A stretch of 64,000 nucleotides of DNA from contig JBEWZL010000291.1 in the NCBI GenBank assembly GCA_045837725.1, positions 1 to 64,000 on the forward strand, written 5' to 3'. The position numbers and the translations under genes were made by a program. Of the stretch, positions 1-52,264 are shown in pieces; within the stretch, counting starts at the first letter, position 1, and the number at the start of each line of letters is the position of its first letter. The DNA is from Vermamoeba vermiformis (taxonomy: Eukaryota). The notes beneath the pieces are model-generated. The model was given only the letters and a program-made list of their open reading frames with translations. It was not told where the DNA came from and made no database searches.

Positions 1-2
1 TA

Positions 3-1790
3 ATGTTTACTGCCTATCCGCCTTTATCGGAGGATGACATAGAACTAGCTCGGGCAAATAACCGAGAAGTATTCCCCGCCATGGGATCGCATGCTGATAG
101 TACGCAACAAACTATTGTTATTGCATTTGTATTTATTTTATCAATTAGATGACAAGTACTTGGGCAATGCAAGAGACGTTGTTGTGTTTACGGTCTCTGG
201 TTTCGTAGATCCAGATGAATTGGTGGCTAACTGTGATGCCCCACCGGGGTGGCGCTTTGTGGTGCAGGAGCGTTCGCAGACTGGGACTCGTGAGTGCGTT
301 ACCGTTTACGCAACAATTAATTTCTAATGCATTGTGCTTAGGGGATGTTGACATTCCGCTCGTGGACAATATGATGCTTTTACAACCAAAACGAATGCAA
401 TCATACTTGAAACATCGAGTAGTCGGTGTATATTCCAGATTTATACGTTGGGTGGCGACAATTCGTAATGTAGATGTAAACATTTACGAGTCCGAGAAAC
501 GCAACTGTGGTAAGCTGTTAATATTTGGTCTGTACTTCCACTAATTATTTTATAGAGGCAAATACAACTCTTGGTTATTCTTTGTCGACCTGGACAACCA
601 ACAAACAAAAGCTAATGCAGTGGAGGCGAGCACTGCGGCCTTCGACAAATGCCAAGAAACGAAAACTCTCGCGCAGTGGACTGGCTCGGAATACGGAACC
701 TATTAAGCCTTTGATTGATATATTTTTCCCCACCGGAGGTTGTTGGGCGTTTGCTCACTTGCTTTTGCACAACAATCAACTGTTGTATTGTGCGTCTTGC
801 AAAGTTTTGCTCATCGAGCAGTTGCATGAATGTGCCGTTGGTAAATCATGTATCTTCGGCCCGAGAAAACATCTTAAAGTAAGTGACAATCTTGACGTTT
901 AATCACTTCAATCAAAATAACGAAAGCTCAGGTTGGGGAGCTGTATTCCAAGTTCGATTTGGCCAAAGCAGAATTTACTGGTGGCTTAACAATAGACTCC
1001 TCCTTTAATGGCCTCAGTCAAATAGGTAATTCCAATTCTGCAAATTAAACGGCGCGATGGATTAATTCACTCCAGGTTGTACGTCGATGTTACTTCGGAA
1101 AAATTTCCCTGGTAATAATTGGAGTAATTGGCGCGAGGGGGTTATAACAGTTGGTGGGGCGGGCGGCACGATGATTGATGGCTCATTTGTCGTCAATCGC
1201 GGGGCAGATTCAGCAAGGAATGACATGGTGCGGCTCAATTGTTATCACTGTCTTCCTCTCGAAATTGCGGTTGAATATCAAGAAGATGTCTTCCAATTCA
1301 TCGGTAAGCAACTTTCGCACTGTGTCAATTTGTGTAATGATTCATTAGGCACGTGGTTTGTTCGTCGAGTGAACCTGGATGCATACACTGAATTCTCCGT
1401 CGAGCCGTTCTACACATTTGAGCTATTCAATCGTCATAAATTCCTACGCGAACACCCCTTGGCTCATTCAGTACCAACGATCAGTAAGAGGAGTCATTTT
1501 TATCATGCACTTTGTTGACACTGAGTTTCGCAGATCCATTGCTGGTCCAAGTTTGCGAATTGTACCAACGAGTTGCCGGTGTCGTGGATGAGTTAGAGTT
1601 AAGTGACGCAGGCGGGCTTGCTATGGCGACAATATTTGGCGAGCAGCCACTGGATCTGGTGCTACAGTACCTACAGCTCCATTATGAAGTGTTGCTTTGC
1701 TCGCTTGGACTTTTTGAAGTTCCTGAGTTCGATCCCAATGCATTCATTGCCGCTTTCAACCAGCTGAGTGATCTCGATGGAATTCCTTGA
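3..1790 (+). CDS. Multi-exon protein (possibly 5' partial) with a divergent SRA/YDG-like domain at ~851-1435
   Basis: Manual splicing of GT-AG introns gives an open frame including IFGPRKHLKVGELYSKFDLAKAEF…GCTSMLL…VITVGGAGG…RNDMVRLNCYHCLPLEI…FQFIGTWFVRRV…FYTFELFNR. This follows the SRA motif order (FG…VG; GAxSIv; YtGxGG; NxaL; PvRV; yrYDGlYxV; fxLxR). Confidence 0.6.
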
Positions 1791-2044
1791 AATAAATACT
1801 CACGTGCTTTTTCTGCAGTAATTCGCCATTTTCTGTTTTGAACCAGTTCGATGCTTATGTTGTTGCAAGATACCACCAATTGCCGGCCTTCAGTAGGGTA
1901 AATGAACCCGATCCTAATTTGTCATCGAATTTTCATATTTTTTATTTTACCTAAACGGCGAAAATCTCAATTAAATTTGGACGTTCTAGAGTAATTTACT
2001 ACATTTTTTAGCCAATACTAAGGTACTATTTTTTTTGGATGCAG

Positions 2045-5000
2045 ATGTCGCTTGTTCGTGTCTTTTCGGGTAAGGCTATGTTATTTGCGCTATTAAAAAT
2101 TTATTTTTAATGTGTCGTATCTTCAGACACCGATCTACAACGTTTTATAGCTTCTCCAAATGTCATGCAGTCGTTGATCCACTTCCACGAAACAAATGAG
2201 CGTGGTCTCTCAATGGGCGACATTCACTGGGTCTACGAAGCATATCACGGCAATATAGCAAAAGATGAATTTATTGCGATCATTAATAACATTTTAAAGT
2301 AAGAAAATTCGACGGTCGATCTGTCTTCTGTGCTAACAAATTTACAGCCAGCCAAAAAATAGAGGCAATTTTACTTCGCATAAGATAGGAAAGATACAAT
2401 TATATCCATTTGAATTTGAGGTAAGAATAATAATCTTGTGCAGTGTAATCCTAATTTTCTGCGATAGTCTCCGCTGTTTAAATTTGGGTTTGTTAACCCA
2501 AGTGTTCGTTGTTTTCTGCACGTATGCTTGGTACTTATTGCAAAGGTCCCGTGTCTACGGCAACTGTTTGAACAGTCAACTACCGAGATTGCAATGCTAG
2601 TCAACGAGTATTTACTCAAATTCATTGAACAAAGCCAACCGGTCGATGCTGCAGTTCTGTTTGAAAGACTAGCAACTACTCTCGCTATCAATTCTAATGT
2701 ACGAACAATTGTGCAAGCTGGACAACAAGACGCTACCCTATTGTTACAAGATTTGTTAAATTTGGTAGATTCGCGGCGAGAACTAGCTATCCAATTCAGT
2801 ACGGCGATATTTGATGAAAATTCTACCCAAGTGAACGACGGAAGAGTGGAGCAGATCAACTGTACGTATTGTTTTTGCGACACATAACTAATGTAGTACA
2901 GGGATCGACATCTACTTCAAGCCATCCGTTCAGAGTGTTCAACAAGGAATTGACGATTTTTTTGCTCCGGAAGTGGTAGAATATCAAGCAAAGGTAATTA
3001 TTATCAATGTTTGTTAACGAAGTACTCGATCTAATGATAAAAAGGATTGCCAATTACGCAAACAGGTGTTGAACCACCCAAAACTGTTATTGATTCGAAT
3101 CAATCGTTTCTCCGAGCTCGATGAACACAAGCAAGTTCGACGTTTGACAATCGAAACATCCGTTCACTTTGAAGGAACTTTGTACCTACTTTATGGTGTA
3201 ATTTGGCACGATGGAAAAACTCGCAATAATGGACATTATGGAGTTGTTGTCAACGAACGCTGTGCTTTACATTGGAACAATTATAATGATGCTAAAGTTA
3301 CACGGGTATGTTTTTTCCAACAAGCGATCTCGGACTAAATGTCAAGTAGGAGCGTGTTGCTATTCTTTCGCAGTTAAGCGGTGGTGTTCGCTCCGCCAGT
3401 GCAGTGGTTTACATTAAACAAGCCGAAGTCGGCATTCAATTTCCGTTGAAGACTGCCGTTCCTGCTTCCTGTACGATGCAAACAAGGAAACGTAAAATCA
3501 GTGTCGCTTGCGACCTGTTGGAAACAGAAGACAACTTAATTGCTCCTCCTAAAAAAAGTAAGTGCAACGCGGCTAATTTAATTCTAATGCACCGTTAAGA
3601 ACCCAAGCAATTGGAAAAAGGCCAACCAAAGCTTCAGACACCTTCGATAGATAAGGAGTGGCAGCTGCCAGACTCGCATATTGTTGTTAAGGCTGTAACC
3701 GACGATCTCCTTATGGTGGATAAAGTGGCACCGGGAAGCAAAATAGCTCTTGAGCAAATCAAGTGCATTTACAAAGTACGCTTCCATAATGTATGTATGC
3801 GAGATAATCGAATGGTTGTCTTATTTTGGCTAGGATCTATGGGAATGGCTCATCGATTGGAAAAATAAGAAGGTGCAAACAAATTGGATATGCGAGTCGG
3901 ACATTCGGGCAAATGCACTATTAATAATGAATAAGTACTTCCAATCTCCGCATGCACTATCCAATCAAGGTTGGCAAATACGAGATAAAACAAGTAAAGG
4001 TTTTGTTCGTACCTCCTTTTGTACGTTGGATAGCGGGCCCACCAATAAGCAGCCTATGACCAACACTAGCATCTTTTCGCGCTTTTTGCCTGGTACGTAT
4101 CATTCATTCGAGCGTTGAATATTCTCAGAATTAATGAATACCGCAGAGCAAACCCGTTTACAGATGGTCGAAGATATAAACCGTTATGCCAGTCTTTCAT
4201 TTTCTGAAGTTATGCAAGAACGAAAAACATGGCGTTTGAACAAAACTGCACAGCTCAAACTTTGGGCCGAGAAAATGCAACAAAAATACAAAGGTAAATA
4301 TTACATAAGCTAACGAGAAAACAAACATTCTGATCACAATTAGGATTGCTAACGGTACCAAGTTGGGTTTCAAACGTAAAGCATTTGGAAGAATATTTTA
4401 GTACCGAGTTTGAACCTTCCGAAGAAGACAAAGTTACTTTTCAAAAGCAAAGAACAAATTGGAAACCACTTACGCTGCCAGAATTTGATATATTCATTGC
4501 CATTGGGATCGCAAGTCGTTGTGTTAAAGGTCGTCGCCTCAGAGATTACTGGACTATCAAAGATCCCTTGTATGGCAACGAATGGATATCGTCAAAAATG
4601 GGCCGAGATCGATTCGAACAGATTATGCATTATTTCCACTTTGATATTGACAAAGTTACTCAAGAAGTAGCTCAACGATGCCAAAAAAATTGGTCTCCAT
4701 CTCAAAAAATTACCTTTGATGAAACCATCTTGCCGTTTTTGGGCCGCTTTTATGCCCGAGTAAGTACTTGTTATCGTTAGATAATACATTTTAACTAACG
4801 TAACTCAGCAATTCATTCCAAGCAAGCCACATCCAAACGGTGTCTTACTCTACTTGGCCGCCGATGAATCTTACTACATTTGGGACTTCGATATATTCTT
4901 GGGTCTATGTCTGCCTCCTAAATATCAGCTGTTAGAGCTAGCCGAGAAATTGAACAATCACAAGCCTGGCCACGTGATTATAACAGATAGCAAATGGGGT

Positions 5001-5915
5001 GCGGAAGAGACGGCTACTATTTTGGATGAACAAGGCATTAAATTCTTGTTGTCGGCAAAGAAAAATGCTCCTTCATATATATTTGGTACTTTGCAAAATC
5101 CTCTACAAGAACCAGGGCAACACTTGACGTTTGAAAAAGAAGGCACTGCTGGTCCGATTATTGCTCACTCTTTCCGCGATAACAATGCAATTATGAATCT
5201 CTATTCCAATTACGTCGATGGTTAGTTCAATATTAATCAAAGTGTTTATCTAATTTCATTGCAGCGTCATCAGCCGCAACAGATCTGTGTCAAGGAGTAC
5301 CGTCGACTGCAGTAAGCTTCTTATGCTTGCGTCATTAAGTTACTAATTTAGTTGTAAATGCAGAGTACAAAGCCACTTATTGTCCAAGAATACACAAAGA
5401 CCAAAGGATTTGTCGACGAGGCGGCAAGACAAATTCATACGTTTGATTGGCCGTTCAGATTAACAAAATGGACACAAGTAGTATGGGAAAATATTATAAA
5501 TATAATCACTTGGAATTCATACCAGTGCTATCGCTACTATAAGAAAGTTCAGAACAATGACGAAGATCAATTTCGAGATTTCTTGCAAATTTTAAAGGAT
5601 GAACTTAGTCAAGAGCAGTCTGCACGCAACAAGAAAAATGCATCTCCGTTAACTAGACACAGATCTCTCAGAACCCGAAGAATAATTGTCGCAAAAGATC
5701 TGAAATCAAAAAGTCTCTCTTCTCATGTGCGAGTTCAGAGCGAAGATGTCTTTGAAAGACGAGTCAATGGTTTTTGCCTAACGTGCAACCCACGTAAACG
5801 AAAGCAAATTAGCACAGTATGTTGGAAATGCAGCTCCGACAAAAAAAGACCAATTTTTCTGTGCAGTACTTGTAAGAACACACACAAACCCGTTTGTCGT
5901 AAGCTTAAACTATAG
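2045..5915 (+). CDS. USP (peptidase C19) - chromodomain - piggyBac transposase (DDE_Tnp_1_7-like) - Cys-rich domain fusion, ~1,100 aa, ~13 introns
   Basis: Continuous frame after removing short GT-AG introns (e.g. 2070-2126, 2299-2347, 2421-2467, 2862-2901, 2994-3044). USP motifs: GFVNPSVRCF, QQDATLLL, YLLYGVIWHDG…GHY…WNNYND. Chromo-like: EQIKCIYKVR…WEWLIDWKN…TNWICESDI. piggyBac motifs: MGRDRFEQI, FDET, QFIPSKPHPNG, ITDSKW, KPLIVQEY…GFVD, then a C-terminal CxxC…CxxC…CxxCxxxH. Confidence 0.85.
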
Positions 5916-5967
5916 AATTTGTTAACAAACTTGCTGTAGGTAGTATAATAAATACTGTTTGTAATAC

Positions 5968-6430
5968 ATCCGGCGTCTAAGGGTGAAGCCTTAGCGCCGC
6001 TACAATGAGAAAGTTACGCGCTGATTCTCGACGATGTGGGTCAGAGTATGGTCTGGAGGTCGTGTTGCCTCGGCAACACCACTGGTTCGGAACAGCACTC
6101 TCACTGGCACTGAGTTGGATGGGCTAGAAAGTGACTTGTCACTTGCCGTAGCGGACACTCTTTTGTTGTACGGTCTCCTTTATGGAGGGGTGTCGCCTTG
6201 ATGCCTGCGACCTTTCTATTGATGAATCACATGGTTTTGGTCGTGTCAGTCACCTCAACGTGACTTCGACACTTGGATGGGTTAGGGCCCGGCCAAATTC
6301 CTCCCTATGAATACATGTGCTTGCTCAACCAAGTATTGTATTGTGATTAATCATTTTTTATTAATAATACAAAGAAATGAGCTGGGGGAAGTGGATCGGA
6401 TCTGGGGCCGATCCGGATCTACTCAGGGGT
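5968..6430 (+). ncRNA. Candidate structured non-coding RNA (or structured 3' region) of the transposon
   Basis: GC-rich non-coding island with many nested stems whose non-canonical pairs are G-U on the + strand, plus a twice-repeated TTGGATGGGYTAG motif. No family recognised. Confidence 0.5.
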
Positions 6431-6550
6431 GTGGCGCACTGTCAATGGACATCACCCAACAAAATTGTACCTTTTTTTGTACTACAGTCTCTTCTGGCGA
6501 TTACCAAAAATCAACGGTCCTGAATTTTTGTATAATTTTTATCTAAAAAC

Positions 6551-6573
6551 ATTGGCCGGCTGAAAAGGGATAT
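6551..6573. repeat. Candidate right terminal inverted repeat plus ATAT target 4-mer
   Basis: …GGCTGAAAAGGG|ATAT. piggyBac-superfamily ends begin CCC, and Pokey-type ends begin CCCTTTT. The partner end is not in the window. Confidence 0.5.
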
Positions 6574-7737
6574 TTGTGCGTGCTTACCTGTGCTTCTTTC
6601 ATCGCACAAATACCCTCAATTTCATTGAGAATGCAAGTAGAAGTAACTAACGCGTCGCTTGGGCTTTGAGATAGCTGTGAAATGATGAGCATCGGAACCT
6701 GATCTTGATCCCAAAGACGACTTGTAAATCTTTACTTCAACGGCTCTGGCAATTGCGTGAATTAACTTAATGATACAGTATTTTGAAAGAAGGAACTTGT
6801 TGTGGGTGTCCAGAGCGAAGGTTTCGTAAAAAGAATTATTTTATCGCAACAACAAGAGAATTATGCATTCCTCGCCGAAATCAAATAAATTGTTATCTTA
6901 AGTTAATAATAAAAATAACTTATAGTTATATTCCGTAACCAACTACCACGTTAAATTTATTTTTTTTCGATAACACGACCACTTCAAGCATAGGCACAAT
7001 AGTAACAATATGTAAACAACTATTACTTCGCTATAGATATAGTAGACTTTGATTGGCTAGAAAGGTAAGTCCAAATCCAGATTCGTTTTTTAAGATCTTC
7101 AGTACTTCTTCCTATTACGAGTTCAATATACCTCCAAAAATTCGTATATATATTATTATTATTATGGATGAACCGATTAAGCAAATTGTTAGCAGAATAA
7201 TTAAATTGATTTTAATTAATTATGGTTCAAGCAGATCTCAACTCGTTCAAGTAATTTATCGATCCCGCTTCTAGATTTGCAGGCAAATTAATATATAAAT
7301 GGTACGCAATTACCTTGGCAGTGTTTGTTATCGATTAATCAGATCTGATCTGCTAGTGCGAACGCGAAGTTTGATATACCGAAGCTTATGAACCTGTGAA
7401 TGCTACAGCGGACTAAAATAAGGTAATTATATATATTAGCACTCATACCATACATTAACAAGCTGTTTAAGGACACAAAAACTTAGGGATCAGGATCGTC
7501 CTCATCACTCGTCAACTACTCATCAACATTATATCACGATAATATATATAATTAATTAACGCCACCAAGAGTTATAGTATCACACAGTGTTTGATCAAAA
7601 TCTAGTCATACAACAAATTTTTCCTGATATGCTGGATCTGCGACAGTCGAGTCACCAAATGATGTCATTATTTGTCAATTTAAACTTGTACAACCACTTG
7701 TTGTGATGTCTTACTTCTATGTAAATTGTTATGATGG

Positions 7738-8003
7738 CATGTTCCGCGTTGTGGTGTGACATGATCACAATAGTGACTGCAGATAATGCCTTGACGCAAA
7801 GTTGTCCAGGTGTAGGCCTAGGACTTCTGGGATGAGTCGGCTGATGCAGATTCATCATAATGATTCACCTGCTGAGTCTACAATTAAGTGACATGTTCCG
7901 TGTTGTGGCGTGACATGATCATGAAAATGACTGCAGAAGCTTTGACGCGAGGATGTCCAGGTGTAGGCCTAGGACTTCTGGGATGAGTCAGCCTATGCAG
8001 ATT
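7738..8003 (+). repeat. Two tandem ~113-bp copies (7738-7852, 7892-8003) of a structured non-coding unit
   Basis: Identical 36-nt core TGTCCAGGTGTAGGCCTAGGACTTCTGGGATGAGTC with diverged flanks. Intergenic. Confidence 0.9.
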
Positions 8004-8405
8004 TACTTAATTGACGATGGCTCAGGCTATTATTGAGTGATTTGGAGGAGTTTTATGAACGTCTACAATATAGACACTTAGTTGGTTAAGGAATATATAA
8101 TGTGATTTCTCTATTCTGCGCGAAACTAGATTCGATCCAACTCTCTTCATTCCTCATCGTGCAAATCGAACGAAACTCTTTCAATACGTCATATGCATGA
8201 TATACTTCTCCTCAGTTTGCAATTATTGGATTCACACGAGGGAGAACCCCAAAAAAAGCTTCTCTTTGATTTTGAGTGTCGATCGCGATCAAAATATTGA
8301 CGAATCCGATGCAATACCTTGCATATCAAAGATAAAGCCCGAAATATGATCGATCATACTAAATAAAAAATCAAATTTATTTACGTAAAGGAAAATAAGA
8401 GCAAA

Positions 8406-11400
8406 CTAACAATTATTATTCTGTATAATCATAACGACGCACTCGCGAGTGACATTCACTTCGGCTAATTCATAGTCTTCTTGAGCTTCATCTTGAGAAG
8501 ATTTGTCAAAGCGCGACTTTGTTGCATCGAACCACGGTTTGATTAATCGTTTGAGCAGTTCATTGTTCAAGTCGCCCGCTTCACTTTCCAATTCTTTTCT
8601 GAGCCAATCAAGTGCTACTTGACGGTCCATCTCGTCAGCAATTTCCAGCACGTCGAAGAAGTTACCAATCCAAGATATTGCTTGCGCTGCGTGAACGTCA
8701 TCTCCGATTCTCGCCAAGCAACACGCAGCGTTTAATGCGACTGAAAATCTGTCCTTCGGGTGCATACCAGTTTCCCACAGCATCGAGAAGATGTCCACAG
8801 CGTCCGTAAAGTATTTGGGGATCCCTTCGATCATACCAAGTTCATAAAGCAAGAATGCTCGCACCCACAGGGCCATGCTGTCGTCTTTCAATGGCTCCAA
8901 AGTGTTGTTTAAGTCTTGGCAAACAGCGCGTAGCTTCTTTTTTTCTTTTGTTGGCAGTGTTTGATCAAGGTTTTGGAGGTAGCGAATGACCGTATCTGCT
9001 AATAGCACGTGATACTTTCTATTGTTCAGCTGACGCCAATGATTGATAGTTCCTTTAAGCGACTTCCAAACATCTGCAATTGATTAGAATCATATTAGAA
9101 TGAGCAAAGTTCCCCTACCTATTTGACTCGATTGCTTTGGCGATGAAAAGAACAGGAACTTCGTGTAAATGACTTTGTAGATATCTGCGAATTCGGGGTT
9201 CTCAAAGTGAACTTCATCTAAGCGATTGCGTTCGGTTGGCTCTCGATTGCAAATTGTGGTCAAAAAGCTTAAGGTTTGCTCAACTCGATCAAGCTTGTAC
9301 TTCCACAAATCGCGTACGTCAACAAAATGTCGTTGCTCTATTCGTCTGGTCATCCAATCTATTACTTTCCAAAGTCGTTGCAGTGTCGCTTCGATCATTT
9401 GCGTATTATCTTGACCATCCAGGAAGTGTAGCGATAGGGCCAAATCAAAGTACTTGTAGGACCCAACTTTGGCGGCAGCAAACAGCTTCTTGTATTTCAC
9501 TGAATAATGCTTGGCATTGACGACGTTTGACTGCCACTTGTCGCGCTTTTTCGGTGATCCGCGAAGAAGCAGTTGGATTATTTTAGACTTGACTTCGTTG
9601 CCGTCAATAGGTGCTGATAATCCGTCAATCATGCTGTCCAACTGATCGAGGATGCTGTGCAAAAAGGGATTGCAAATGTCGCGACTTCGTAGAACAAAGA
9701 GCATAATCTCGAGGTTGGTAATCAAATCGTTCTCTGGATGGCGGAAGCTTTTAAGCAGACTCGCCTTCTCTGTGGAATATGACTTTTCCAGCTTTTGATA
9801 GATTGTCGAAACTCGCGAATCGCTTTCTGACACGGAGATGAAGTCCAGCAGGAGTAAGCAGTATTCTTCCTCGAAGCTGTCTCGTCGGTTCATCAAGTCC
9901 ATGAAGAATGGTAGCTTTTTGCCAGTACTTGGCAAGCACGCAGCAAACTTCGAAATTGCTTTGTTCAAGCGTTTCAAATCGCTCGGTGACGTCGTAATGA
10001 AGCTAACAATGTCACATTGAGTCTTCGGTGAGATGATGGTATTTTTTGGTAATGCCATTATTGCACGGAGTAAATCACCAAGAAGTCGCATTGTTGTTTG
10101 CACTGGTGCCAAATCAAAGAGGTCCTTCCATGTCTTGCGTTGTTGGGGGTGCCATTTCCACGCGTATGGAGCAATTCTTGGAGGGTTGGCCGTCTTTGTA
10201 AGCGGACCATAGTCATTGTGGTCGCTTTCATGCTTGCACACAAGCGTGTATTTGGGAAAGTAGAGAGAGTAGGCCAGAGACTTTAGGTCTTGCTTGTCAT
10301 CGGCTAAAAAGATGCTCATTTCGTTCGGTTTAGCTACTTCGTCACGGAATTCCATGCATGGAGGAAGGTGATGAAGCATCAACGTGAAGTAGTGCCATGA
10401 TGGTCGCATATCCCATGACATGATCATTGGTGGACCAAGTGGATAGACCAGAAGATCTTTTTCAATGCAGTAAGGTGGTGCGTAAAGGTTGTCCTTGTTC
10501 TGCTTGTCTCTTGCGACTCTATCGTGCAAGCTTATCCATCGAGTGATTTCCAAGTTGTAGGGGCACAAGTTGTGAACTTTGTTGTGGAACGACTTCGAGC
10601 CAAACTGCTTGCCGCCATAAGTCCAAACAATAACTTCATTCGACACTGATCTTTTGTCGACCACTTCTTGGTGACGCATTTCTGTTGCAATCATCATTCC
10701 AGCAAGAACTGCAATAGCTGATCCTGAATAGCCAACACCAGCGATGCGAATGACTTGAGGATTGTTCTCGTCTTTGGACTTGTTAACCCGTGGCTTGATC
10801 ATGTTATCGCCCTTGCCTCGGGTCAACGGATTGTAGAGGCGTCTTGCAATGGATAATGCAGCGTTGTACCATACGACTGGAACGCGATCATCTGTTGTAA
10901 TAGTAGTATGAAACTCTTCTAAATCCGCAGAAACAACATGTGCATAGTCTACAGTGTAGCTAAGTGGCAGGGGACGGATGTACCAATCTTGGGTGTTCCA
11001 AATAATGTTAAAAAATGATGATGAGCTCGGTTTGTCGTCGATCGCGTCGTAATTTGGTTTAAAGTACTTTGCGTCGCAGAGAACCAGTCCTTCAAGCTCC
11101 TTGATTTTTTGGGCGTTCTTCACGAGTGTTTCCCAGTCACTATTTGTTCTTGTCGTCCATTGCTGGAATACATCCTCGTAATTGTGATCTTCAATAGCAC
11201 CTCCTTGAGGAGCTTCATAGTGCGATAGCTGAACTTTTTGTCCATATTCCATTTCTGAACGACCGCGCTGATAAACAAGTGATACACGTGACTGCAACCA
11301 ATCAACAATATTCTGATTGTTCTTCACTTTTCGGTGTTGTCGAATGATCGATATCCAATGGACAATCTGATTCAACACTTGATTTGCAGCATCTATTGTG

Positions 11401-14231
11401 TTGATTGCCTGATTTCTTCGAGCTTCATGATTATTGATTACTGGGTCGCCAGGCATTAGAGGTGGCACAGGAAATTCAGCGCGTCCATCACAAAGAGTTT
11501 GAATAGCTCTTTCGTACCAAATAAAGTGAAGACATTCGTCGCATCCAAGGAACAACGAGCGCAGTAGGCCATAATATGTACCATCAGGGTTCAGCAGTTT
11601 GATGAAGTATTGAATTTTGATGTCGGTGCTGGAAAATTTTTGTTGGTTGAGAGTATCCATTATTTGTGGCAATATATTGGTAATTGTTGTCGCAAATTGC
11701 TCAAAGCCATCATAGTAGCCAAACGAATGCAGAAGTTCGATCACACCAAGAGCGTTCAGAGTGCCATAACCCCAAAGCCTTTTTTCTCGGCATAACGCCA
11801 ACGCTATTACAGCGTAAGCTCGAGGAAGTTGCGCCTTGCATGTCCAAGTGTGTTCTAGCTTTAGAGTCTCTTTTTGTTGGAAAGCTGAGTGGTCGAAGCG
11901 AAACTTCGTCCAGTATTCTTTTCCCGCCTTCTCTAAGTCTTTCAATTCGATGCAACCCATTGATATTGCACGACAGTATTCTCGTGCTTGAAGTTTGTGC
12001 TCGTGCGCACAAGGTGGAGGTGCCCACACACCATCGTCATCAGTGCAGAGAAGCCAACTCTTCATGGAATTGATCAAAGTACGTGAGTTTGCATGTTGAA
12101 CAAGGTAAGAGTTGCTGGTCATGTTCACTTCGACCAACAGATCGGAGATGAGAGCCAAGAACGGAGTGAGAGACTTGGTGCCATCGGGGATGTACACGTC
12201 AAACGATGAGTGAACTTGCTCGTAGTTCTTCTTCTTTGCCGTCAGCTCTTTGATGATGCAGTCTTGAAAAGCAACACCGTGACCAATTCTGCACTTGATT
12301 CCTCGAGCACAAATGCGACGGATTGCCAATGCCATGATGAACATGTGTGCGTACATTGCCTTTGCGATTCGACCTTTCTCTTCGCGAATGACACCTTCGC
12401 CACAATGCAAGCGAATGCCAAGCTTGAAGTCCGATGCAAAATCAAGCCATTCGTCTTGAATGAACGGGCAGTATGGAAATCCAAGCTCTTCAGAAACTAG
12501 ATCCAAGCCAACGACAGTATTCAGAACACTGCGATTATGGTGGTCTTTCTGCCGCAGCATTTGAAATAGGGTAATCAGCGTATGAAGTATGGGCGTGAAA
12601 TCCGAATAGGCTTCAGCATTCAGCGAATGTGACATCGCAGTATTTGGTTCTTTGATTAACAAGTCCAATGCTTCGGTACTTGTAGCTCTCCTTAGCTCTC
12701 CGTCAATTGGAAGCTTGACAAAAGTCCGAGAAATTCCTAGCAGAAATCTGTATTCCATCTTGCCGCCAGTACCCGCAGGTATCGCATTCCAAACGGAGTT
12801 ATGGACCAAGTACTGATAAATCCAAGGAGTAGTCATATCTTTCCAGCCCAAAGAAAATTCTATATAGCTTGTTCTTGATTGCGCGTAGCTCTGCAACACG
12901 TGATTGAGCAGAAGTGTGAGCGTGTATGGATGTTGCTCGTAGATCGGATCACGAAGCTTGAAGCGCATCGGATAGAACTCGGGTGTGAAGCGGCGTCTGA
13001 AGCGATGAACCAAATCAGAGTTCGATGGTGCTGAGCCGTCAACGTTGAGCATCGTGAAGCAGTTGCGAATCTGAGCCAGTGTTGCCTTTGCTTCTAGTTC
13101 TGTCCCTTCCATGAGGTAACACAGATCCGTGTTGGTGATTCCTGATTGATAGTCGAATTGTTGTGCCTTCGCGTTGAAGAACATGTACTTCTTGAGGTAA
13201 CGGGCACTGTTACCCTTTCGGGTCAACGCCAGTCGTGCAATTATTTCGTGAACCACATTGTCTTTTCCAAGGTTCGTCTTAATGTTCATCGATTCACGCA
13301 AGGCATCGATGTCGAACACTACATCAGTTGTGAAATTGAGGGCTGTTTGCCATTCCCAGTGCGGCCCATCCATTGACGTGCGCGAAAGCTTTTTGCACAA
13401 CTTGGGAGACAACGGTAGATTGAGCCATTCTTTGTCGCGGAAAGATTGAAGAATGTTCGCCACCAGGACCTTTGACAAACGGACTGGCCTTATGTTCTCC
13501 CAGTTCAGCATCGTATAAACTTTCCAATCTTGCTCTTGCAAACCAAGATCCAGCCATTTTTTTTTTGCACTCTCTTCCTTGGAGCCCTATTATTTATAAG
13601 AATGGCAACGATTTAACTTAAAATTTTTTGTGTTACATACCACATCTATTTGCTGATCTCCACCCCAGTCACATTCGACGCGAGTTGAAAGGCCCCAGTT
13701 GCGTATGGTAAATGCTTTTGATATTTGGTTATGAAGAACAGTGAACGTAAATGGATCCGAAGTCGGATGAAGTATCGCATGATAAACACCATCACGAAGC
13801 TAAAAATGTATTAGCTCAGTAAGCCTACGGTAGTCGCTCTTACCTCCATGACTGTGGGATCTTCACGGCCGTACTTTGCAATATAGCTTCCTTCTTTGTC
13901 CGGGGTCTTCAATATAATCTCGAGGGTTGGAAACTCGCGAAAGCACAACGGACCGTACCACTCCAATGACTTCAGTGGTCTATCGTTGTTAGAGAACAAG
14001 TACTTTCGCATGATTTGATCGATCCAGAACGAGTGATCTCCCATTCCCATGAAGTGGGTGTGAAGATCGGCGGTAATTAGCTCCGAATCCAAATACTCGA
14101 GCAATTGAGCGGCTTTTTTCTGGTCCTTTACCCATGCATCTCGTTTGCATTAACATTAGATACTGCTCTTAGTAATTAAGAGAGTACTTACCTCGTGCCA
14201 CCCTATCATCAGGTGGCCCATCACGATTCAT
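8406..14231 (-). CDS. Large protein: adenosine/AMP-deaminase-like amidohydrolase domain, degenerate Lipase_3-like alpha/beta-hydrolase domain, helical/TPR-like C-terminus
   Basis: Deaminase motifs: DLHTHFMG, YIEFS, VVGLDLVSEE, RLHCGEG, RIGHG, VEVNMTSN, LCTDDDG. Lipase-like: IAGVGYSGSAIAVLAG…VWTYGGKQFG…ITRWISLHDRV. Start exon MNRDGPPDD at 14231 splices to the HTH-motif exon. Main exon is ~4.4 kb. Confidence 0.8.
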
Positions 14232-35756: not shown

Positions 35757-38700
35757 TCACTCATCTGCACCAAAGTGCATCGATTTCTTTGCTTCATTGT
35801 ATCTATCTTGCGCAGATTGCGAGTGCTTAATGTACTTCATCTCTTCTTCTACAGATATTTTGTGAGAATGAACCTCATTAATTTCGGAGCAAATGCTAAT
35901 AACGACCAGTTCTTCGATGAGACCGAGATTCTTGTACGCTGTTATCTACGACGAAAAATATTATTATTATTATTATTAGCCTGAAACAAGTGTAATTTTT
36001 ATAGCTCTTACCTTATGATGTCCGTCAATAATAAATAGTTCCTCGTACCATGCGATCGCTAACGCTGCAGGTCGCCGACCTTTTCGGATCTGTTCCTCGT
36101 AGTACTTTACACGCTCTTTGTTTAACAAATCAGATGGTTGAGTGAAGTATACGAGAGGATGGATTGGAAAGTCCGCTACAAAAATCTTGTTAGAAAGATC
36201 CGGATCTCGACAAGTATTGTTTTTACGTACTATCCCCCTCAGAGAGGTCACTGTCAGATGTATATTCAAACAGCCTGTAGTCTCCTCGTACTTGGACAGA
36301 AATTTCGTAAAAACCTGAAGAAAGGCATTTCATGAACGGCATCATTGTGTCAACCAGACTTTCAAAATCAATGTGACCCTTGTTAAGGACAGTTTCTAAA
36401 TAATATTATAAGTAACCGTTACTATCTGGTAAGTATTATTCTACGCACCTATTTGTTTCACGGCAGATTCAATACTCGTTTGCGAAAGTGACCGAGATCT
36501 GACCATGCAGCGAAAAATGGATCCATCATATTGTGGCCACGAAGAGATTATGGGCTGTCAAAATCAATCGTTATATATTTTGAATACTACGCGAATATGA
36601 CTTACCTCGCCGTTGAGTTTGAGTCCGGTAAGAAAACCGTGCTCGAGCACTAGAAGTCCTTCACCGTCATCAACATGCACAGCTTGACGGAAACATTCTG
36701 AGTATCGATTTCTTATGTAGTCATTTGTGAGAGATTTTTGAATTGATCGGAATGGATTTGTTGAATCTGGATCGGCTTTCGGATGCGCGATCCAGATTTG
36801 CTTTGCTGTGATTTCTTTGAACCAACTCTTTGATACTGCTGCAGTTTGACACGCGTCATTGAAGGTCAAGTAGCTGAATACCAATGATACAATCTCACGA
36901 GGGAGATTCAAAAACGTTCCCAAATTGTATTCGGGCTCAGATCTCCACAAAGTGTTCGACAAGCGGTAGTCCTATGATAATATTATAAGATTACATCGAC
37001 CTATTGACGCATATTATTCTTACGTCTGGCAACAGAGTTTGACTCTCGACAAAATAGCGCAATTTTTCTCCGTCTCTTGTTTCAGTATTTAACAACGTCT
37101 CAATCTCTTCTCGCGAAAAATTATTCAACGCGTGTTTCCAAAGAGCACGAATTGTCGATTCTTGGCGCATCAAGTCCCATTGGAACCGATTGAGAGCGAT
37201 CTTCTCTTGGATGTGCTTGTAGTCCCTGAACAGCTTCTCAATGGGCTTCAATTTCTCGCCGTAATTGATTTCGTATATTCGCTCAGTTATAAGGAACGCA
37301 ATAATATCACTCTTAATTAAAAAAGTTAGCATTAGAGGAAATTCGTGACCGTTGCGTGCCGCGCTTTTCTTGACCTAACCGCTCCACACCACTATCACCT
37401 AGACCTCTCTTATAAAATATTTATGTAGTAGCCCTCGGGCACTATATTTTTAAGATCTAAAAATAGGATTTGTTCTTGTGGGAGGCGGAGGCAGATCGAG
37501 TAAAGACAGCGCGGATCAAGCAACAAAAAATGTCCTTCAGATAAGAATTTTAAACTTACCGTACGCACATAGGGCCACATTGTCCATATTATAACGTAAT
37601 CTCCGTATAGTATCAGGTCCTCAATGATTTGTCGATCCAACTCAGGATCGTACGGCAGAGTTGACTTTAGCCTTTTGTTCAATATTAGACTACGGCCAGT
37701 ATGGACAGTATAAATATTACATACTCTAAAAGCTGTTTCAAAACATTGTACTGAAGGCACAGTGCCGCGACGCCAAACACATTTACACCATCCGGCATAA
37801 GTGTTTCGAACCGTCTCATCTTGTTGGTCTTAGCACGAAGATTTAGCGTTGGATTGATCAATCGAGCAGTATCGTTGTAGCCATACGCGCAAGCATAGAA
37901 AATTGCTAGCAATGAAATAGTTAGTTATCCGTGATCTGAAAAACTTGAATCGAGATCTTACCTAAATTGCCGTTTTTATCCTGCACCGTAATATCTGCGC
38001 CACGTGATAATAAATAATCAGCAGCTGGTTTTTTCTGGCCGTGAAAGTTCAACGCGTGTTGCAACGGCGTCTTTCCACAAACGACGTCACTCACTGACAA
38101 GCCTTCGTGCTCAATCAAGTATTGCAATATTTTCGTGCTGTGTCTGCATGCTAATTTTAGAGCTTTGTCCATTCGAGGGCTCTAAGCAATAAAATTTAAC
38201 AAAAAAATTGAAAAAGATTTGGATCTTACTTTGCTGTGCTTTAACATCTCCTTAAAGTACTCCACGTTCTCCTTTCGAATGGTTATTTCAATAGCGCTCT
38301 CTTTTTGCCGATAACTGCAGTCCGCTCCCTCTGGATTTGGGGCGAACGGATCTGTTGCTTTGGGGTGTGTCAAAATCATTCGCAGTTGCTCCACCGTTAA
38401 CTTTTCATTTGTAACTGCTATCGACAGAAAAGATTGCTGGTCTTCGAAGTAATCTACAGCAGTTAGCGTTAGTCATCTGTAACAAACCAGGTTACAAACA
38501 AGTTTGACCGAAATTAAACGCACCTATATCAAGGCTGTCCATTAAATTAAGTAATATTCGTAAAAGCTCGCCGTTACTCGGATCTCCGTTCTTGCACAAG
38601 GTAGAAATTGGATTATTAATTTTGTCGCTGAGTAAATTCTTCGTATGCTGCATTACCCGTTCTGAGGGATTATTCCAATTATATGATAAGTAGTTCTGAA

Positions 38701-38863
38701 TTTTTTCTTGATCATTCTGATTAATCCAATCAAAGATCTCGTTTTGATTTTGTCCACAAATCCACTCTTCTTGCAGCGCGTCAAATAATGTATCTGCATT
38801 TATATTTGCATCAGTAGTTGCATTCGAGGAAAGAAAATCGACAACAGGCTTGTTGTCCTCCAT
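35757..38863 (-). CDS. Ankyrin-repeat / F-box / ParB-Sulfiredoxin-like protein, paralogue A
   Basis: ANK: GKTPLQHAL…YLLSRGADITVQDKNG. F-box: FLNLPREIVSLVFSYLTFNDACQTAAVSKSW. C-terminal RVKYYEEQIRKGRRPAAL…LFIIDGHHK…AY. Confidence 0.75.
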
Positions 38864-38958
38864 TCTGAAGAGCCAAAAAATAATAATTGCTTGCAAGATC
38901 CGGTAGTTATAGTTCGTTTATTAAAGACAAGATTGTCTAATAAGGGCAGTGTTGGAAT

Positions 38959-41900
38959 CTAAAGGTCGCCAAACAATGAATGAAGGTCTGAATAGTTGTA
39001 GTCACGGATCATGTCACGCAATGTCAACAGATTGTGAAGCAACTTCGAAGGCTTGCTGGCGAACAAGCGAGAGTGATTCAGCACTGTGGTGATTAATTTG
39101 ATCATTGATGCGTTGTGAGGTCCTGATGGAGGCACCAAATCGTCACGTTCTTCGACGAAACCGTTGTGTTTGTCAAGTACTGTTGCACGACACAACGCGT
39201 TCCATGTCTCGTGCCACTTGTCAGAAGACAACTCTATTCCTGCAATAGTTTCATCGATGAAGTCCATCTTGTCAGGAACGACACTAAGAAGCATCATGAG
39301 TGCCGTCTTCTCTTGTTTGGAATAGCTCAAGTTGCCGTTGAGAAGTTTGAGCAGTGTGATGCATCGATGCTCGTCGTTGTTCGTGCCATGCATGTAGCGT
39401 AGATGATGAAACTCTGCTATTGAATTATTTGACTTGAGGAACGGGATCAACTCATTTGCTTCGAAGAGCGACACGAGAAGGAAGTGCGTCTTGGGGCCGT
39501 TGAATTTGATGACAACATCGATTGGTCGAATGTAGTTGGACAGCATGTGTGACTTCACTGTTGATAAGAAGTTCTTCGTAACATAGATGTTGTTGAGTAT
39601 ATCTGCCCTTTCGAACGCTCTGTTATTGCTCCATTCAGCGTCCAAAATTGTACCGAAAAATATGTGCTTAATTGGCAAAACAGGCAAAGCAGATATGGCA
39701 TCAAAGTGCGTGACTCGATCAAACGGCCAAGATCCCTCCTCGCTAGGTTCGACAAGGGGAGGTAGCTCTCGTTGTCGCTCCTCTTCGACTTCTTGTTGGA
39801 GTTCTCGTTCGTACTCTTCATTCACACTGCCAGAAATACGAGTTATCTTGCCAGTAGGAACAAGTTTGCAAGCGTGATTGATCAGATTGTCATACAGAGG
39901 ACGTGCTTTCTCGGTGAGCTGATATTCTTGACCAATCTCTCGACCCAACAACTCGCTCTTCGTTCTTGTTCCATGTTGATTGATGTGATCTTTCACGTTC
40001 ACGGACTTCAACGGAATGCCGTACATGTCTTCTGTTGCAAGTACCTCTTTTAACACCACCGCTTTGATGATATCTGTAGGCGTTATTGATGGGCTGGAGT
40101 GCAGCAAGTCCAATGCCATCGCCGCTGCATAGTGATGGAAGCCTTGTGATGCATATGTGATGATCGCTTCTTCTTGTGCTTTGATTGTGTTCTCAACGAC
40201 CCATTCGAGGATATGAACACTCGTTATTGCGTCCTCAGTGAGTTCTTGGTTGTGAGCCATTTGTTGAATCTTCATCGTCACTTCTGATGTGCCCCAGAAT
40301 GTCACATTGTGCAGTCCAACAACAAGCTTTCTCATGCGCATACAAGCTTGCATCAGTTTGTCTTTTGTGATACCAGTTGCAACCGTAACGAATGCATGAG
40401 ACTTTGTTGGGAATGGCAAGTCAGTGCCTCGAGTGTGAATGTCATCCAAGTACGTGAAGCACGAGTGCTCAAGCGGTCGACTGCTGCTCAGCTGAGTGCT
40501 GTTGCCATGTCTATCGATCAATGCCAATCTGTTGGACTCATCAAAGAAGATGCCTGTCTGAAAGCGAGGACAGATCTCGAGCACTTTCACAACAACTTCA
40601 CGGTTTGACATGCCTTCGATCAGTGCTCCGCTATCAATCAGCACATTCCAGTTGTCGTGACTGCACATCTCTTGTAAGATTCTCTCCGACTCGAACTCTT
40701 TTGGCAATGACTTGTATTGACGATTGTTGAACTTTTCGTTGGTCAGAACGTCAATCATTTTGCCGTTCGTCGACTCCACTGATGGAAGCGCCACTTGTCT
40801 GACGTACAGCGGAAGAGTGTGTTTGGTGTCATCAGTTCCCGAGAAGCCAACAACCTGTTCACACTAGTAAGTACGAGAAGTATGTATAATGGATGAGCAG
40901 CAACCTACCTTATCAGCGCTCTTTGCAAGGTCCCAAGAGTTTGCAATGATCTTTTCTGGGAATGACCGCGTGCCCAATGGAAGCACGAAGTTGTCAAGAT
41001 AGTATGCAATAACTTCGTAGTTACGACCAAAGTACAGTGTCAAATGCTGTGCAGGTATTAGTAAGTTACTCTTCAATGAGACGGTCTACTTACCTCCATC
41101 AAATTGACGTTCTCAACGTTCACTGCTTCGATCTTCTCAAGCAAAGTGACATACTTCGCGTTCATAATTGGCCTCGAGATCATGTACCATGTGCGATAGA
41201 TCTCTCGCTGTTCGTTGATTCCTTTCGTTTTCAAGTACACAAAGCATGATTTGACAGCTTCTGAGTCGATTCCAGCGCTATGTGCCAATATCGTGAGTGT
41301 GATCGCCATGTCTGGTTGACCGAACTCCACTCCATCTGCTGGCGTGTCTTTGCCTCTGAACGGAACTGCCATCGGTACTGCCCTACGTTTGTCGATACCA
41401 TAGTGAATGCGATGACGCTTCATCAGCGATGCCTTGAGCACTTCAAACGATAGCAATCCACGAAGCACAAACACAGGTACTCTGATTGACTTGTCAAGCA
41501 CCAACTTGTTCTTGAATGCATCGCACTTCTTGTCGCCGTCAGGAGTATCAGGATAGTTGTTCAGCACGAAGTCCTCAACTTGCTTCAACTCGTCAGGAGA
41601 CTTTCCTTTTGCAATCCGTAGCCAAACAGGATCAACTTGAAAGACACTAAATAGACTTGCTCTGAATGCCTCGAAGAAGTCTTCGTTGATTAAGCGAATG
41701 ACGGGAAGTACGTGCGGCTCTCCTGCACCAGGATGAAAGATGAAGTGTGCCGTTGAGGCTTTCATTACGTTATATAGCTTCTCGAGCTTTGATGGTCCGT
41801 CGCAACTGCTGTCAAGATATCTGCCTGGTACAGCATCCCTGTTCATTTGATACAAGTTGGCCATGAAGATGCATCGAACAAGTGCCAAATGAACGTTCCA

Positions 41901-44900
41901 TCGCGAGCTGCCTCCTTCAATCAACTGTTGATCACCAAGTGTGTAGATCAGTTGGTACTTGTGACGAAGAATCTCATCGCTCTCGTCAAGCAGTTCGAGA
42001 ATTGGTGCATCGATGATGCCTATGTCATATAATTAGCCATAGTTAGATCGAAACACACCATTACCTTTGAAATTCTCAACTGCCAAGCTGTTGTTTTGCT
42101 TAGGGTACGTGGCCTGCCTTAAGACTTCTCTGTATTTGAGTTGCATGCTCAAGCGATGCTCTGGAGTTGACAATATGATACCGCCATGAAGCTTGCATTC
42201 TTCGAATTGCCTTCGCAACTCATCCATTGCTTGAGGTGTTAAGGGCACATTGCGTTGAAATGGAAACAAATAGATTCGCTTTCCAAGCATATTGCCAAGT
42301 GCGAGTTTAAGATAGTTGTGAACTTCGTGAAATAGTGACGGGAGTACGTTGACCCGAACGAGAGTTTGTCCGTTTGCCAAAACGCTGCACAAGATCGGAA
42401 CAATCACTTTCGACTTGCCTTCGCCCATGTTCAACTGAAGGACAATGTTCCTTTCTTCGAGAAACTTCGTGGCAATCTCCACTTGGATTGATCGAATGCA
42501 CACTCGTCGCTCCATCTCGAAGATGAGCCATTCAGGGTGTTGACGCGGACTCCACTCTCGCCTATCTGACAGCTCTGCGAACAGTTGCGATTCAAATCCT
42601 TGGCGATCGCCCTCATCGGTAAGCGAGTGCAAGTCGTTCAAGAGCTCAATGATCCGTGCCAACTTGACGAAATGAACCTGAAGGATTGCGAAACGCAACG
42701 CTAGTTCATGCAAAACATTGGCATCTTGGAGACAAGGGTTGATCGCATGATATTGATAGCCATTCTTGAGGAGCGAAGGAATTATGCGAGGATGAGGTCT
42801 TGTTAGTAAATTCGTCATCTTCCATAGGTTTAGCAGTGGAAGGTCAACGCTCATCAAGACCCGCACAATCTCTGACCAGGTTCTGTTGCGCTTGTTGATA
42901 ATTTCATCCTTCAAATTGACGTAATTGTCTAAATTCATGTCAATCTTTGGCGTTGGTTGCTGTGAATAAATGTGCTTTTGGTAGCTATCTTTCAGCTCGT
43001 TGACAATCTTAGACTGAATTTCTGCGCTTCCTTCGATTGACTGAATTTGTAATGGAAAGTCAACTGGCTTTGCCTCTCCTTCGTAAACGTTGAGAAGCTC
43101 TTGAATTTCATCTAGTTTGTCATTCAGTGCCCTTCTTTCTGCTGCCTTCGTTCTATCTTTTGCTATTGAACTTAGTCGCTCTAATATCGCCGATTCTTCT
43201 AATTTAAGCGCGTTAATATCTACTGACGGCTTAACCTGTGAACTGGCAAATTCGTAAGACGCTCCAAGCCTTTGCTCGAAGAATTCCACTCCGCTACAGA
43301 ACTTATTCAGCGGTTCTAACTCCAAGTCCATGACATCAAGATTGATTGCTGGCCATGTAAACGTCAATTGCCGAGAAGGGCTGAACGAAACTGTCTCTTT
43401 CAACGTAAAGGACGAAGACTTGACATTGATGGGTCTGGCAAGCTCATCAAGATAGTCCCATAATAACCGCCCGAGTAACCGAGTGTTGTGCAAATTTTTC
43501 AGCCTCTTCAAAAACCTGGTTCGCCACGTAACGTTGAACGAACGGAAGTAGTCCTCTTTCTCTTCAAATGATGACGAAGGACAACCATTTTCGTCCAAAT
43601 AATTGCTAGAGTAGATTTGCCAAGCTGTTTCCTTGTTCTGCGATGTGTCATCTCGAGGAATTAGTTGTCTGAAATCATCCTCATTGACAATTCCATAGCA
43701 GCGAATAGAACTGCTCTCCAGTAAGCGGCGGTCGGGACGCACGAGGTTTGGCGTTGTCATTGTGCAATAGATACACTGCAAAAGCACCAATTCAGCCGAA
43801 TTTTTTAGCAAGGCATTGTGAGCCAAGAAGGTCAAATACGTCAGCACTTCATCGGGTTTTCGGTGCTCCAGCTGCTTGATAAACCAGAAAAACATTTGTT
43901 CGTTGCCAGCCTGTCCCAAAGCCTGCCATTCTGAAGGAAGATTGCCTACAAACGGCGATATCGTTACTTCCTGAATATTGCATTAGTACTCTAAAATGCC
44001 TTGATTTAATTTCCGTTTGAAACCTACCCTATTGAATAAGCGTCTAATCGGGAATGAGGATGGCAACGTTTCTTTCGAAAAAAATATTGTCGGAACGTTG
44101 GTGAAGTATTTGCCAGGCGAGTAACTCTTAAGGACTAGATATCTCTTAAGATAACGTTCAATGCTCTCATCCAACGTTGCTCCGGCAGGTAAAAGGTGCT
44201 TTGTCTTGAAATACTTCTTCGCTTGGTCGGCAATGAAATCTTCATCTATTTTGATTATCTTGGCTTCACCTTGCGGGGTTAAGAATAACAGCCTCGTTGA
44301 TTCAGAATAGAGATGATATACAAGGAGCTTGATAGAGTAAACCATCGGCGAGTATTCCTTCAACTTCAGAAGATCTTTCATCGCCTCTACCTCTGCGACA
44401 GAATATACATTGTTCTGCCAGCATTGATGAAGCAAATAGAGTGCTTGTTGAAGCCCAGTAGTCTGAGTTAAGGGATCTATGGTGTATGAATACTTCGCGT
44501 AAATATGTGCCAGCACTAAGCGCGACAATGTCGTTGATGGTATCAAGCGCTGTTGTACGTCGTCAAATTCGTACGGATATATTTGGTCTTCTCTGGAAAT
44601 CAAGACGATGGGTAACTTCGTGCTGTGGGCGCTTGCAGGTTGAATATACAGGTATCTGGAGAAGAGTGGAAACGTTGGTACCACTTGGACATCAGCGAGT
44701 TTGTAGCCCGGGTAGTTGTCTGAAATGATTTCTCCGCTCTCTTTGATCGTAAACGTCAAATTGAACTTCATATAGGTTACTTGGCACTCTTTAGGTGAAG
44801 ATCTTGTGCATAGTATGTTCTCCACTTTGTCAATTCTGTACAGAACCTTCATTAAGCTGCACAACCGGTCGTCTTTGGCATTCAGCAGCTGATTTCTCTT

Positions 44901-47900: not shown

Positions 47901-48623
47901 GAAGTTCTTGAGGGATCCAACAGTCTTCAGAGCATCGAGCGATGTTTCCACGAGAATGGTTTCTTTTGATAGTAATGGCAGTAGCCACTCGATAATGTAC
48001 GTGGGTGTCGGTGGTTTTCTATTATCGGGAAGCTGACTTGCGCGGCTTTTCCCCAACGGATACGCACCAGAAAACTCGTTGAGCTGCAGGTCAGCCATAT
48101 AATGTAACCATCTGTCGGTAATTCTAGCCTTCTCCACTCTAAATATTGCTTTAGGCAGAGCGATACGCCACGTGCGTGTGAATCCATCATCTTCTACAGG
48201 GTAGACCGAGGAATAGTTAGTGCGACGTAGCTCCATGGGCACAAATAGCAAGTGACCTGCCGACTCTTTGTCGGCGAACACCACAATGTCACATGAGTGG
48301 TACGGAAAGTGCAACACGATGAAGCTGCCTAAGAACGCGGTTAATTGGATCGAGAAGCAATGAGATCTTGAGATACTTACTCTCTGATAACGAATTTATG
48401 GCACGTCGAGTTTTAGCGCAGACATCCTTTAACGAATTAGTAGCATTTCGGTAAATGTCCAAAGTGCTCTGCCAGCTGATTCGCAAAGAGGTGACAAAAA
48501 GTGGATCTAATCCGGGCAGTTTTGTGATGAAACTTGATGCTAGGTAAGCAATGAATGACTCTATGTATATAGAGAAGCGAGCATCTTTGGCATAGTTTGG
48601 TTTGTTGAAGAGCGGAAATACAT
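38959..48623 (-). CDS. Giant DUF3638/DUF3645-family protein (SF2-helicase-like P-loop core), ~3,000 aa
   Basis: HPEWLIFEME, QLNMGEGKS, TPEHRLS, LDESDEIL, AVPFRGKDTP…EFGQPD, GFSGTDD, LIDSGALI, YLDDIHTRGTDL, KDKLMQACMRMRKL, EEYERELQQEVEEERQ. The start codon is uncertain; extra 5' exons to ~48780 are possible. Confidence 0.85.
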
Positions 48624-52131: not shown

Positions 52132-52264
52132 TTTACTCCTGATGTTGTTGCGACGCCTCACAACATTATTTTCAAGCGGTAATAGTACTCGGTGTATTAC
52201 TATTACACGAAAATCAACACAAGCACCATCGTTATTTAAGAGAAGTTATAGATACGCTGCTCAC

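Follow-up and report, generated by a model that had tools for sequence, protein, structure and literature searches.

The window analysed here comprises 64,000 nucleotides of Vermamoeba vermiformis DNA (contig JBEWZL010000291.1, positions 1 to 64,000), and we describe a gene located near its left end, at 2045..5915 on the forward strand, that appears to join a deubiquitinase to a piggyBac transposase in a single protein. The whole coding region comprises 14 exons and 13 introns and would be translated into 1,082 amino acids plus stop. Read from 5' to 3', and all on the forward strand, it encodes a USP (peptidase C19) domain (2486..3425), a linker with a basic patch (3426..3739), a chromo-like module of about 60 amino acids (3740..3962), a piggyBac transposase N-terminal region followed by a core with three aspartates, hereafter the DDD core (4147..5522), and a C-terminal Cys-rich domain (5775..5897).

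The region 2045-5915 is a succession of short open pieces separated by stretches of 40-58 nt that run from GT to AG. A shortest-path search for a stop-free route from the ATG at 2045 to the TAG at 5913-5915 needed 13 GT-AG introns, whereas the controls cost more (21 introns for the reverse complement of 2045-5915 and 20-25 for all ten mononucleotide shuffles), which bears out the initial annotation in its claim of a frame open from ATG 2045 to stop 5915 with about 13 introns. The gene model, built by hand, contains exons 1-7 (2045-2069, 2127-2298, 2348-2420, 2468-2861, 2902-2993, 3045-3305 and 3350-3557) and exons 8-14 (3600-3790, 3834-4092, 4147-4293, 4344-4759, 4809-5220, 5265-5311 and 5364-5915); GT and AG bound 13 of the 13 introns, whose length is 40-58 nt, and a branch site resembling CTAAC or CTAAT was seen by eye in many of them. 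For exon 8, two donors (3791, GTATGT, and 3776) are in frame in the window. Comparison with a relative from a metagenome (L001, described below) led us to place the donor at 3791 and not at 3776, giving 1,082 amino acids: in the L001 equivalent of exon 8 the later donor alone keeps the frame, and the five residues encoded beyond 3776 are conserved (VRFHN in the window, FRFAN in L001). Exons 1-3 (amino acids 1-90) are placed by frame and splice signals only, as L001 begins at amino acid 141. Independent support for the splice model comes from the Pfam profiles UCH and DDE_Tnp_1_7, whose coordinates are collinear and continue from one exon to the next.

The USP domain occupies exons 4-7, and Pfam UCH (PF00443) matches fall on exons 4 and 6. 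Pfam and the other libraries were scanned exon by exon with the contiguous window sequence as query. Exon 6 alone scored 32.6 bits against UCH (E 8.2e-8, profile positions 144-237) and its L001 counterpart 41.2 bits, both above the curated cutoff of 23.9 bits, so that profile searching upholds the USP assignment. A profile made from exon 6 and its L001 counterpart retrieved 69 PDB sequences at E<=1, and all 60 matches listed are USPs; the best is yeast Ubp6 (E 0.0016), with Ubp6 residues 345-386 aligned to the His box sGHY and W..y(n/d)D.kV, which is kept in L001. Single-sequence PDB searches with exon 6 and with exon 4 gave no relevant match. Several motifs can be read in the sequence, namely a Cys box (GFVNPSVRC), QQDA, LLLIRINRF and a His box (GHY and W..YND). 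The catalytic codons proposed in the initial annotation are in place, with TGT at 2510 encoding Cys105 and CAT at 3234 encoding His316, followed by W..YND (N333-D334). Cys105 lies within GFVNPSVRC, 8 residues past the start of the UCH match on exon 4; we take it to be the catalytic cysteine by analogy with the USP consensus, in a stretch that lies upstream of the L001 sequence (which begins at amino acid 141). We read the domain as a USP-type deubiquitinase of divergent sequence that keeps its catalytic motifs and may be active.

The USP domain ends, and the linker begins, within exon 7. The linker carries a basic patch (QTRKRK and PPKKKPK) and is poorly conserved (31% identity to L001), but its frame is open in the window and in L001, and all indels between them are in frame. 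The chromo-like module that follows (amino acids 456-515) is split by intron 8 (3791-3833), so that each test made on a single exon saw only part of it. It contains the pattern ALEQIK..., LWEWLIDWK, TNWI and a helix-like ALLIMNKYF, it is among the best conserved stretches of the protein, and DLWEWLIDWK and TNWI are identical in the window and L001. Pfam gave no Chromo (PF00385) match on exon 8 or 9 of the window or of L001 at E<=1-5, the module being seen there in halves, and a profile of exon 9, which covers part of the module only, matched nothing in PDB at E<=10. An AlphaFold model of exon 9 alone, computed from a 2-sequence alignment, was of a quality too low for comparing folds, with a mean pLDDT of 51.4, a pTM of 0.24 and helices only; the first strand would fall in exon 8. 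In the ESM Atlas features for exon 9, Chromo clusters ranked at the top, at 0.89 for the window and 0.88 for L001. As these values are under the 0.9 line and the two queries are homologous, we count them as one lead only. When the aromatic cage was sought by eye against the HP1 pattern, the Trp of LIDW alone stood at a presumed cage position. The chromodomain announced in the initial annotation was therefore not borne out by the Pfam scans of exons 8 and 9 or by the PDB profile search of a module that intron 8 divides.

The piggyBac part was recognised by Pfam DDE_Tnp_1_7 (PF13843, cutoff 22.4 bits) on exon 11 (61.9 bits, profile 28-141), exon 12 (30.8 bits, profile 145-282) and exon 14 (20.5 bits, profile 298-349). 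Exon 11 can be aligned with the piggyBat transposase 9c0f (E 1.2e-6), and exon 14 with residues 432-593 of the Trichoplusia ni (T. ni) piggyBac 6x67 (E 0.003); a single-sequence PDB search with exon 12 gave no relevant match. The three aspartates are Asp733 (GAT, 4718), Asp806 (GAT, 4986) and Asp917 (GAC, 5415), at the codons that had been claimed. To place them in columns, 13 longer relatives, picked among the 150 exon-11 matches listed, were aligned with the window, and they have Asp at D733 (13/13), D806 (13/13) and D917 (12/13), so that the triad is upheld by conservation; D917, in the VD motif, falls on D447 of T. ni 6x67. The two deviations pointed out beforehand are real: TDS follows the second Asp, and VDEAA has Ala920 where 12 of the 13 relatives have a fourth Asp (D450 of T. 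ni), with Ala in L001 also. The Cys-rich tail (CxxC...CxxC...CxxC...C) lies on the Cys-rich domain of 6x67, within the one stretch that aligns up to residue 593 at E 0.003, and this agrees with what had been proposed for it; its cysteines are retained in L001. No match to Pfam zf-Tnp_2 was found in this tail at E<=1. As far as can be judged from motifs and alignments, the piggyBac part is complete, with a DDD core and a Cys-rich tail that would bind DNA.

A metagenome scan for relatives yielded three loci (L001, L002 and L003). L001 lies on a contig of 3,989 bp, is 5'-truncated at amino acid 141, and contains 10 exons and 9 GT-AG introns with a frame open to the stop. Its order is that of the window (USP, linker, conserved module, piggyBac, Cys-rich tail) in one open frame, and its exons match UCH and DDE_Tnp_1_7. 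Nine of the 10 comparable introns stand at the same place and in the same phase in both genes, the phase identity including introns 7 and 9, and L001 is without intron 13. Identity between the two proteins is highest in the piggyBac core (68%), followed by the chromo-like module (52%), the USP domain (49%), the Cys-rich tail (37%) and the linker (31%). The synonymous divergence (pS) is saturated, at 0.74-0.88 overall, 0.80-0.88 in the three modules and 0.86 in the chromo-like module, and the non-synonymous divergence (pN) is 0.25 for piggyBac, 0.33 for USP, 0.32 for the chromo-like module and 0.51 for the linker. Saturated synonymous sites together with low pN indicate that selection has long preserved all three modules, and also an open frame across the linker. 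These comparisons support one polypeptide under purifying selection. The earlier statement that USP and transposase form a single polypeptide is thus backed by comparison, through the order of L001, its one open frame and the shared intron phases, and the single transcript behind it is a prediction. Three RNA-seq runs bearing the label of this species placed 0 reads on 1700-6200, the 3' end of the neighbouring gene included, and so bear on neither expression nor splicing.

Joined wrongly by the exon model, a USP gene and an adjacent piggyBac-derived gene could in principle simulate such a fusion. The poor conservation of the linker (31%) and a single transcript known only as a prediction would suit two genes, but in both the window and L001 linker exons 7-8 are open, the two genes agree in the phase of introns 7 and 9, and the indels are in frame. 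Moreover, exon 7 carries the USP end together with the linker start, and the USP C-terminus adjoins the piggyBac N-terminus in L002 and L003 too. We consider two separate genes highly improbable.

L002 and L003, which are 99.7% identical over 1,992 nt, represent one locus sampled in two metagenomes. In this decayed relative (L002 1597-2441, L003 119-963), the USP C-terminus directly adjoins the piggyBac N-terminus and the middle module is absent; a frameshift lies inside the exon 11 equivalent, and similarity stops after amino acid 790, the 3' half being absent. Further relatives were obtained with exon 11 in a HMMER search (352 proteins at E<=0.001), of which the four best matches (P0001-P0004), fragments of metagenome open reading frames, show 77% identity over 100 amino acids for the first and 43-46% for the following ones. 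Three of these four cross from the exon 10 equivalent into exon 11 without an intron, and all four lose similarity directly after FLGRFYA-x, where they read V (GTN) like the window and L001, which fits a conserved donor site. No UCH or Chromo match was found at E<=0.001 in 10 piggyBac relatives with a long N-terminus, chosen among the 150 listed. Word-based protein searches (exon 11 at longer lengths, exon 9 and the exon-9 alignment) recovered no relatives, nor did scans of prokaryote genome contigs and of viral contigs.

Such diverged and decayed relatives raise the question of a mobile family. The gene could be the transposase gene of a family of piggyBac-like transposons into which a USP and a chromo-like module were taken up, with an old or end-less copy in the window; the protease would then help transposition or shield the transposase. 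Consistent with this, the DDD triad and the Cys-rich domain are intact, several diverged lineages exist as metagenome open-reading-frame fragments (P0001-P0004, 43-77% identity), L002/L003 is decayed and deleted, and protease-transposase fusions are described elsewhere (Ginger1, Mutator, Helitron and Trichomonas vaginalis; PMC2836005). The surroundings of the gene speak otherwise. None of the 23 inverted pairs found within 1-12000 links 1791-2044 to the 3' flank, so that no inverted repeats frame the gene. A single TTAA on the left (1971) faces 26 on the right, the best end match being 9/20, and blastn-short between the flanks found no match longer than 13 nt. The inverted pair I12 (1663-1677 / 5933-5947) was considered as transposon ends and rejected, its left arm being inside the coding frame of the upstream gene. 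That frame ends at 1790 and is closely followed by AATAAA; about 254 bp (roughly 255 bp from stop to ATG) remain before ATG 2045. Within the 64 kb window the fusion gene is present in one copy, and no second copy was found there. Finally, silent sites are saturated against L001, yet the downstream non-coding flank can still be aligned with it. A transposon family of this kind therefore seems rather doubtful to us.

Because the locus is without transposon ends, a domesticated gene fits it better than an active transposon. Three features expected of a domesticated gene were found: purifying selection relative to one relative (L001), a shared intron pattern, and no transposon ends. That the gene is domesticated, whether its product cuts DNA or only binds it, is what we regard as probable. 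For the more specific proposal, namely that a single gene encodes a tripartite protein of about 1,082 amino acids and is an immobile piggyBac-derived host gene and not a transposon in transit, we would put the chance at about even. Since constraint is strongest on the transposase core, DNA binding is probably retained and cutting perhaps.

Within the domesticated readings, the fusion may have a piggyBac part that no longer cuts and that serves as a DNA-binding or dimerising tether for the deubiquitinase on chromosomal sites. The fourth conserved Asp is an Ala in both the window and L001, and Keith et al. (2008) reported that excision by T. ni piggyBac depends to some degree on all four aspartates. 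The lack of transposon ends would also agree with a loss of cutting, and there are precedents in the tethering of CSB-PGBD3 to chromosomal sites and in PGBD1, which lost transposase function. On the other hand, the active site given in the 2020 structure paper consists of D268, D346 and D447 only, D733, D806 and D917 are retained in both lineages despite saturated synonymous divergence, and conservation is highest in the core (68% identity, pN 0.25). A purely binding role is, in our opinion, an unlikely outcome.

Several observations weigh against the domesticated tripartite gene that we favour. Exon 4, with the Cys box, reached by itself only 15.3 bits against UCH (E 0.015, profile 2-108), under the cutoff of 23.9. 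The middle module is without profile support and is called chromo-like as a lead, unproven as a chromodomain. The comparison relies on one full relative (L001), whose 5' end is missing, and the frameshift and internal deletion of L002/L003 are as expected of a decaying transposon family. The Ala at the fourth Asp position and the excision data of Keith et al. belong here also, as does the transcript, since we infer that USP and transposase share one.

If the domesticated tripartite protein exists as proposed, the transposase core and Cys-rich domain would bring it to DNA and possibly cut, the middle module would assist in positioning it on chromatin, and the USP domain would strip ubiquitin locally at the site of the protein. 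Histones or other chromatin proteins might be the substrate, or else the fusion protein itself and its partners. This scheme supposes a single transcript, activity of either domain and reading of chromatin, all deduced from sequence. A bolder version would be a still-active, chromatin-guided piggyBac nuclease outside ciliates, in which one chain finds marked chromatin, deubiquitinates it and cuts or excises DNA. We hold this to be quite unlikely; if true, it would mean that DNA is rearranged or eliminated in a programmed way in a lineage without a known case, and we know of nothing on DNA elimination in the organism studied here.

Beyond the stop, a putative structured non-coding element conserved with L001 occupies 5965..6335, perhaps extending to about 6470 (L001 3425-3762), and is assigned to neither strand. 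It lies about 50-420 nt past the stop of the fusion gene and is also found 3' of the L001 gene (83 nt at 78%, E 1e-12), with a core at 6279-6314 (36 nt at 92% between the window and L001). As this flank can be aligned although silent sites are saturated, it must itself be constrained, and that it stands beside the gene in each of the two organisms speaks for a common chromosomal locus. A tblastx comparison of the window flanks found this element alone in common with L001, the rest of whose surroundings lies outside the contig. Rfam gave no match to the element. On either strand the folding is better than that of shuffled sequences (z -2.4 and -2.7), and RNAalifold, from only 2 sequences, proposed 49 pairs on the minus strand, 15 of them changed on both sides. 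Positions 6279-6287 of the core read GGGTTAGGG, and on the minus strand CCCTAACCC, which equals 1.5 telomere repeats of the TTAGGG type; that the element may contain a telomerase RNA template is speculative. Farther into the gap 3' of the gene, a 19-nt inverted repeat pair (6927-6945 / 8079-8097, 95% complementary, 1,133 nt apart) may mark a small mobile element.

The other genes of the window are ordinary neighbours, among them a GMC oxidoreductase, a DUF3638 protein and a lipase_3-containing protein. The DUF3638 domain belongs to a very large gene on the minus strand (38959-48395), seen as abutting pieces of 634, 319, 649, 1,169 and 300 amino acids in the same frame, which suggest short in-frame introns containing stops; its intron density is far below that of the fusion gene. 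On either side, at 36564-38917 and 49923-52245 (minus strand), two pairs of similar open frames were recognised by eye in the translations, one pair starting with DYRLS..LW...EY.LG and the other pair carrying the motif WNNPSERV, which suggests that a block of two genes was duplicated locally. A 5S rRNA gene is located at 58918-59036 on the forward strand (104.7 bits, E 6.6e-22).

Domesticated piggyBac transposases make the DNA cuts of programmed genome rearrangement in ciliates, and vertebrates have also co-opted them. Fusions of transposases with proteases that remove ubiquitin or SUMO recur in several transposon groups and, to our knowledge, nobody has shown what the protease does in them. 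In the locus described here, a conserved natural example, a single predicted chain keeps the catalytic residues of both enzymes, so that one recombinant protein and its point mutants could serve to test the link between ubiquitin removal and the action of a DDE transposase. Should the middle module really read chromatin marks, the protein would be a natural model of a chromatin-targeted recombinase. A parallel exists in the chromovirus integrases, where a chromodomain, located at the C-terminus of a retroviral-type integrase, steers a DDE recombinase to marked chromatin. The arrangement proposed here is similar in placing a possible chromatin-reading module on a DDE recombinase, with the difference that its chromo identity is unproven.

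Our search of the full-text literature found no piggyBac fusion with a ubiquitin protease or a chromodomain, and the main text of the 2017 survey of the piggyBac superfamily (PMC5381638) does not contain the word 'ubiquitin'. The parts that this survey describes as added to domesticated piggyBac genes are SCAN and CSB. Like PGBD1 (SCAN plus transposase) and CSB-PGBD3, as presented there, our gene has a piggyBac body, N-terminal exons of host type and no transposon ends, and is conserved between species. It differs in that the added parts are a USP domain and a chromo-like module, not SCAN or CSB, and in that the DDD triad is kept, whereas the aspartates of the PGBD1 catalytic motif are reported in the same survey as replaced or missing. 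Domesticated piggyBac genes with introns are listed as well (PMC5381638): PGBD5, PiggyMac of Paramecium (2 introns, about 1,065 amino acids) and TPB2 of Tetrahymena (12 introns, 1,220 amino acids). With these our gene shares a long, intron-rich, piggyBac-derived product, and the ciliate nuclease acts on marked chromatin, Tpb2p being described as interacting with heterochromatin (PMC3861120). In ciliates, however, the chromatin link is an interaction and not a fused reader, and no protease domain is tabulated for them in PMC5381638.

On the protease side, OTU or Ulp1 proteases are reported in Ginger1 (OTU or Ulp1), Mutator (Ulp1) and Helitron (OTU) (PMC2836005). These elements resemble our gene in having a protease that removes ubiquitin or SUMO joined to the transposase or encoded beside it, but the proteases are of other clans, the superfamilies are different, and the elements are described as multicopy with inverted repeats. 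The nearest precedent is the T. vaginalis protein XP_001314237.1, in which transposase_11 (pfam01609) is combined with peptidase C19 (Bao, Kapitonov and Jurka 2010, PMC2836005). There as here, a DDE transposase, of the IS4/IS5 type in Trichomonas, is joined to a USP (C19) ubiquitin hydrolase; the transposase family differs (pfam01609 and not piggyBac PF13843), the comparison being one of descriptions only. The locus is thus a new variant of two known themes, the domesticated piggyBac fusions and the fusions of a transposase with a ubiquitin-like protease.

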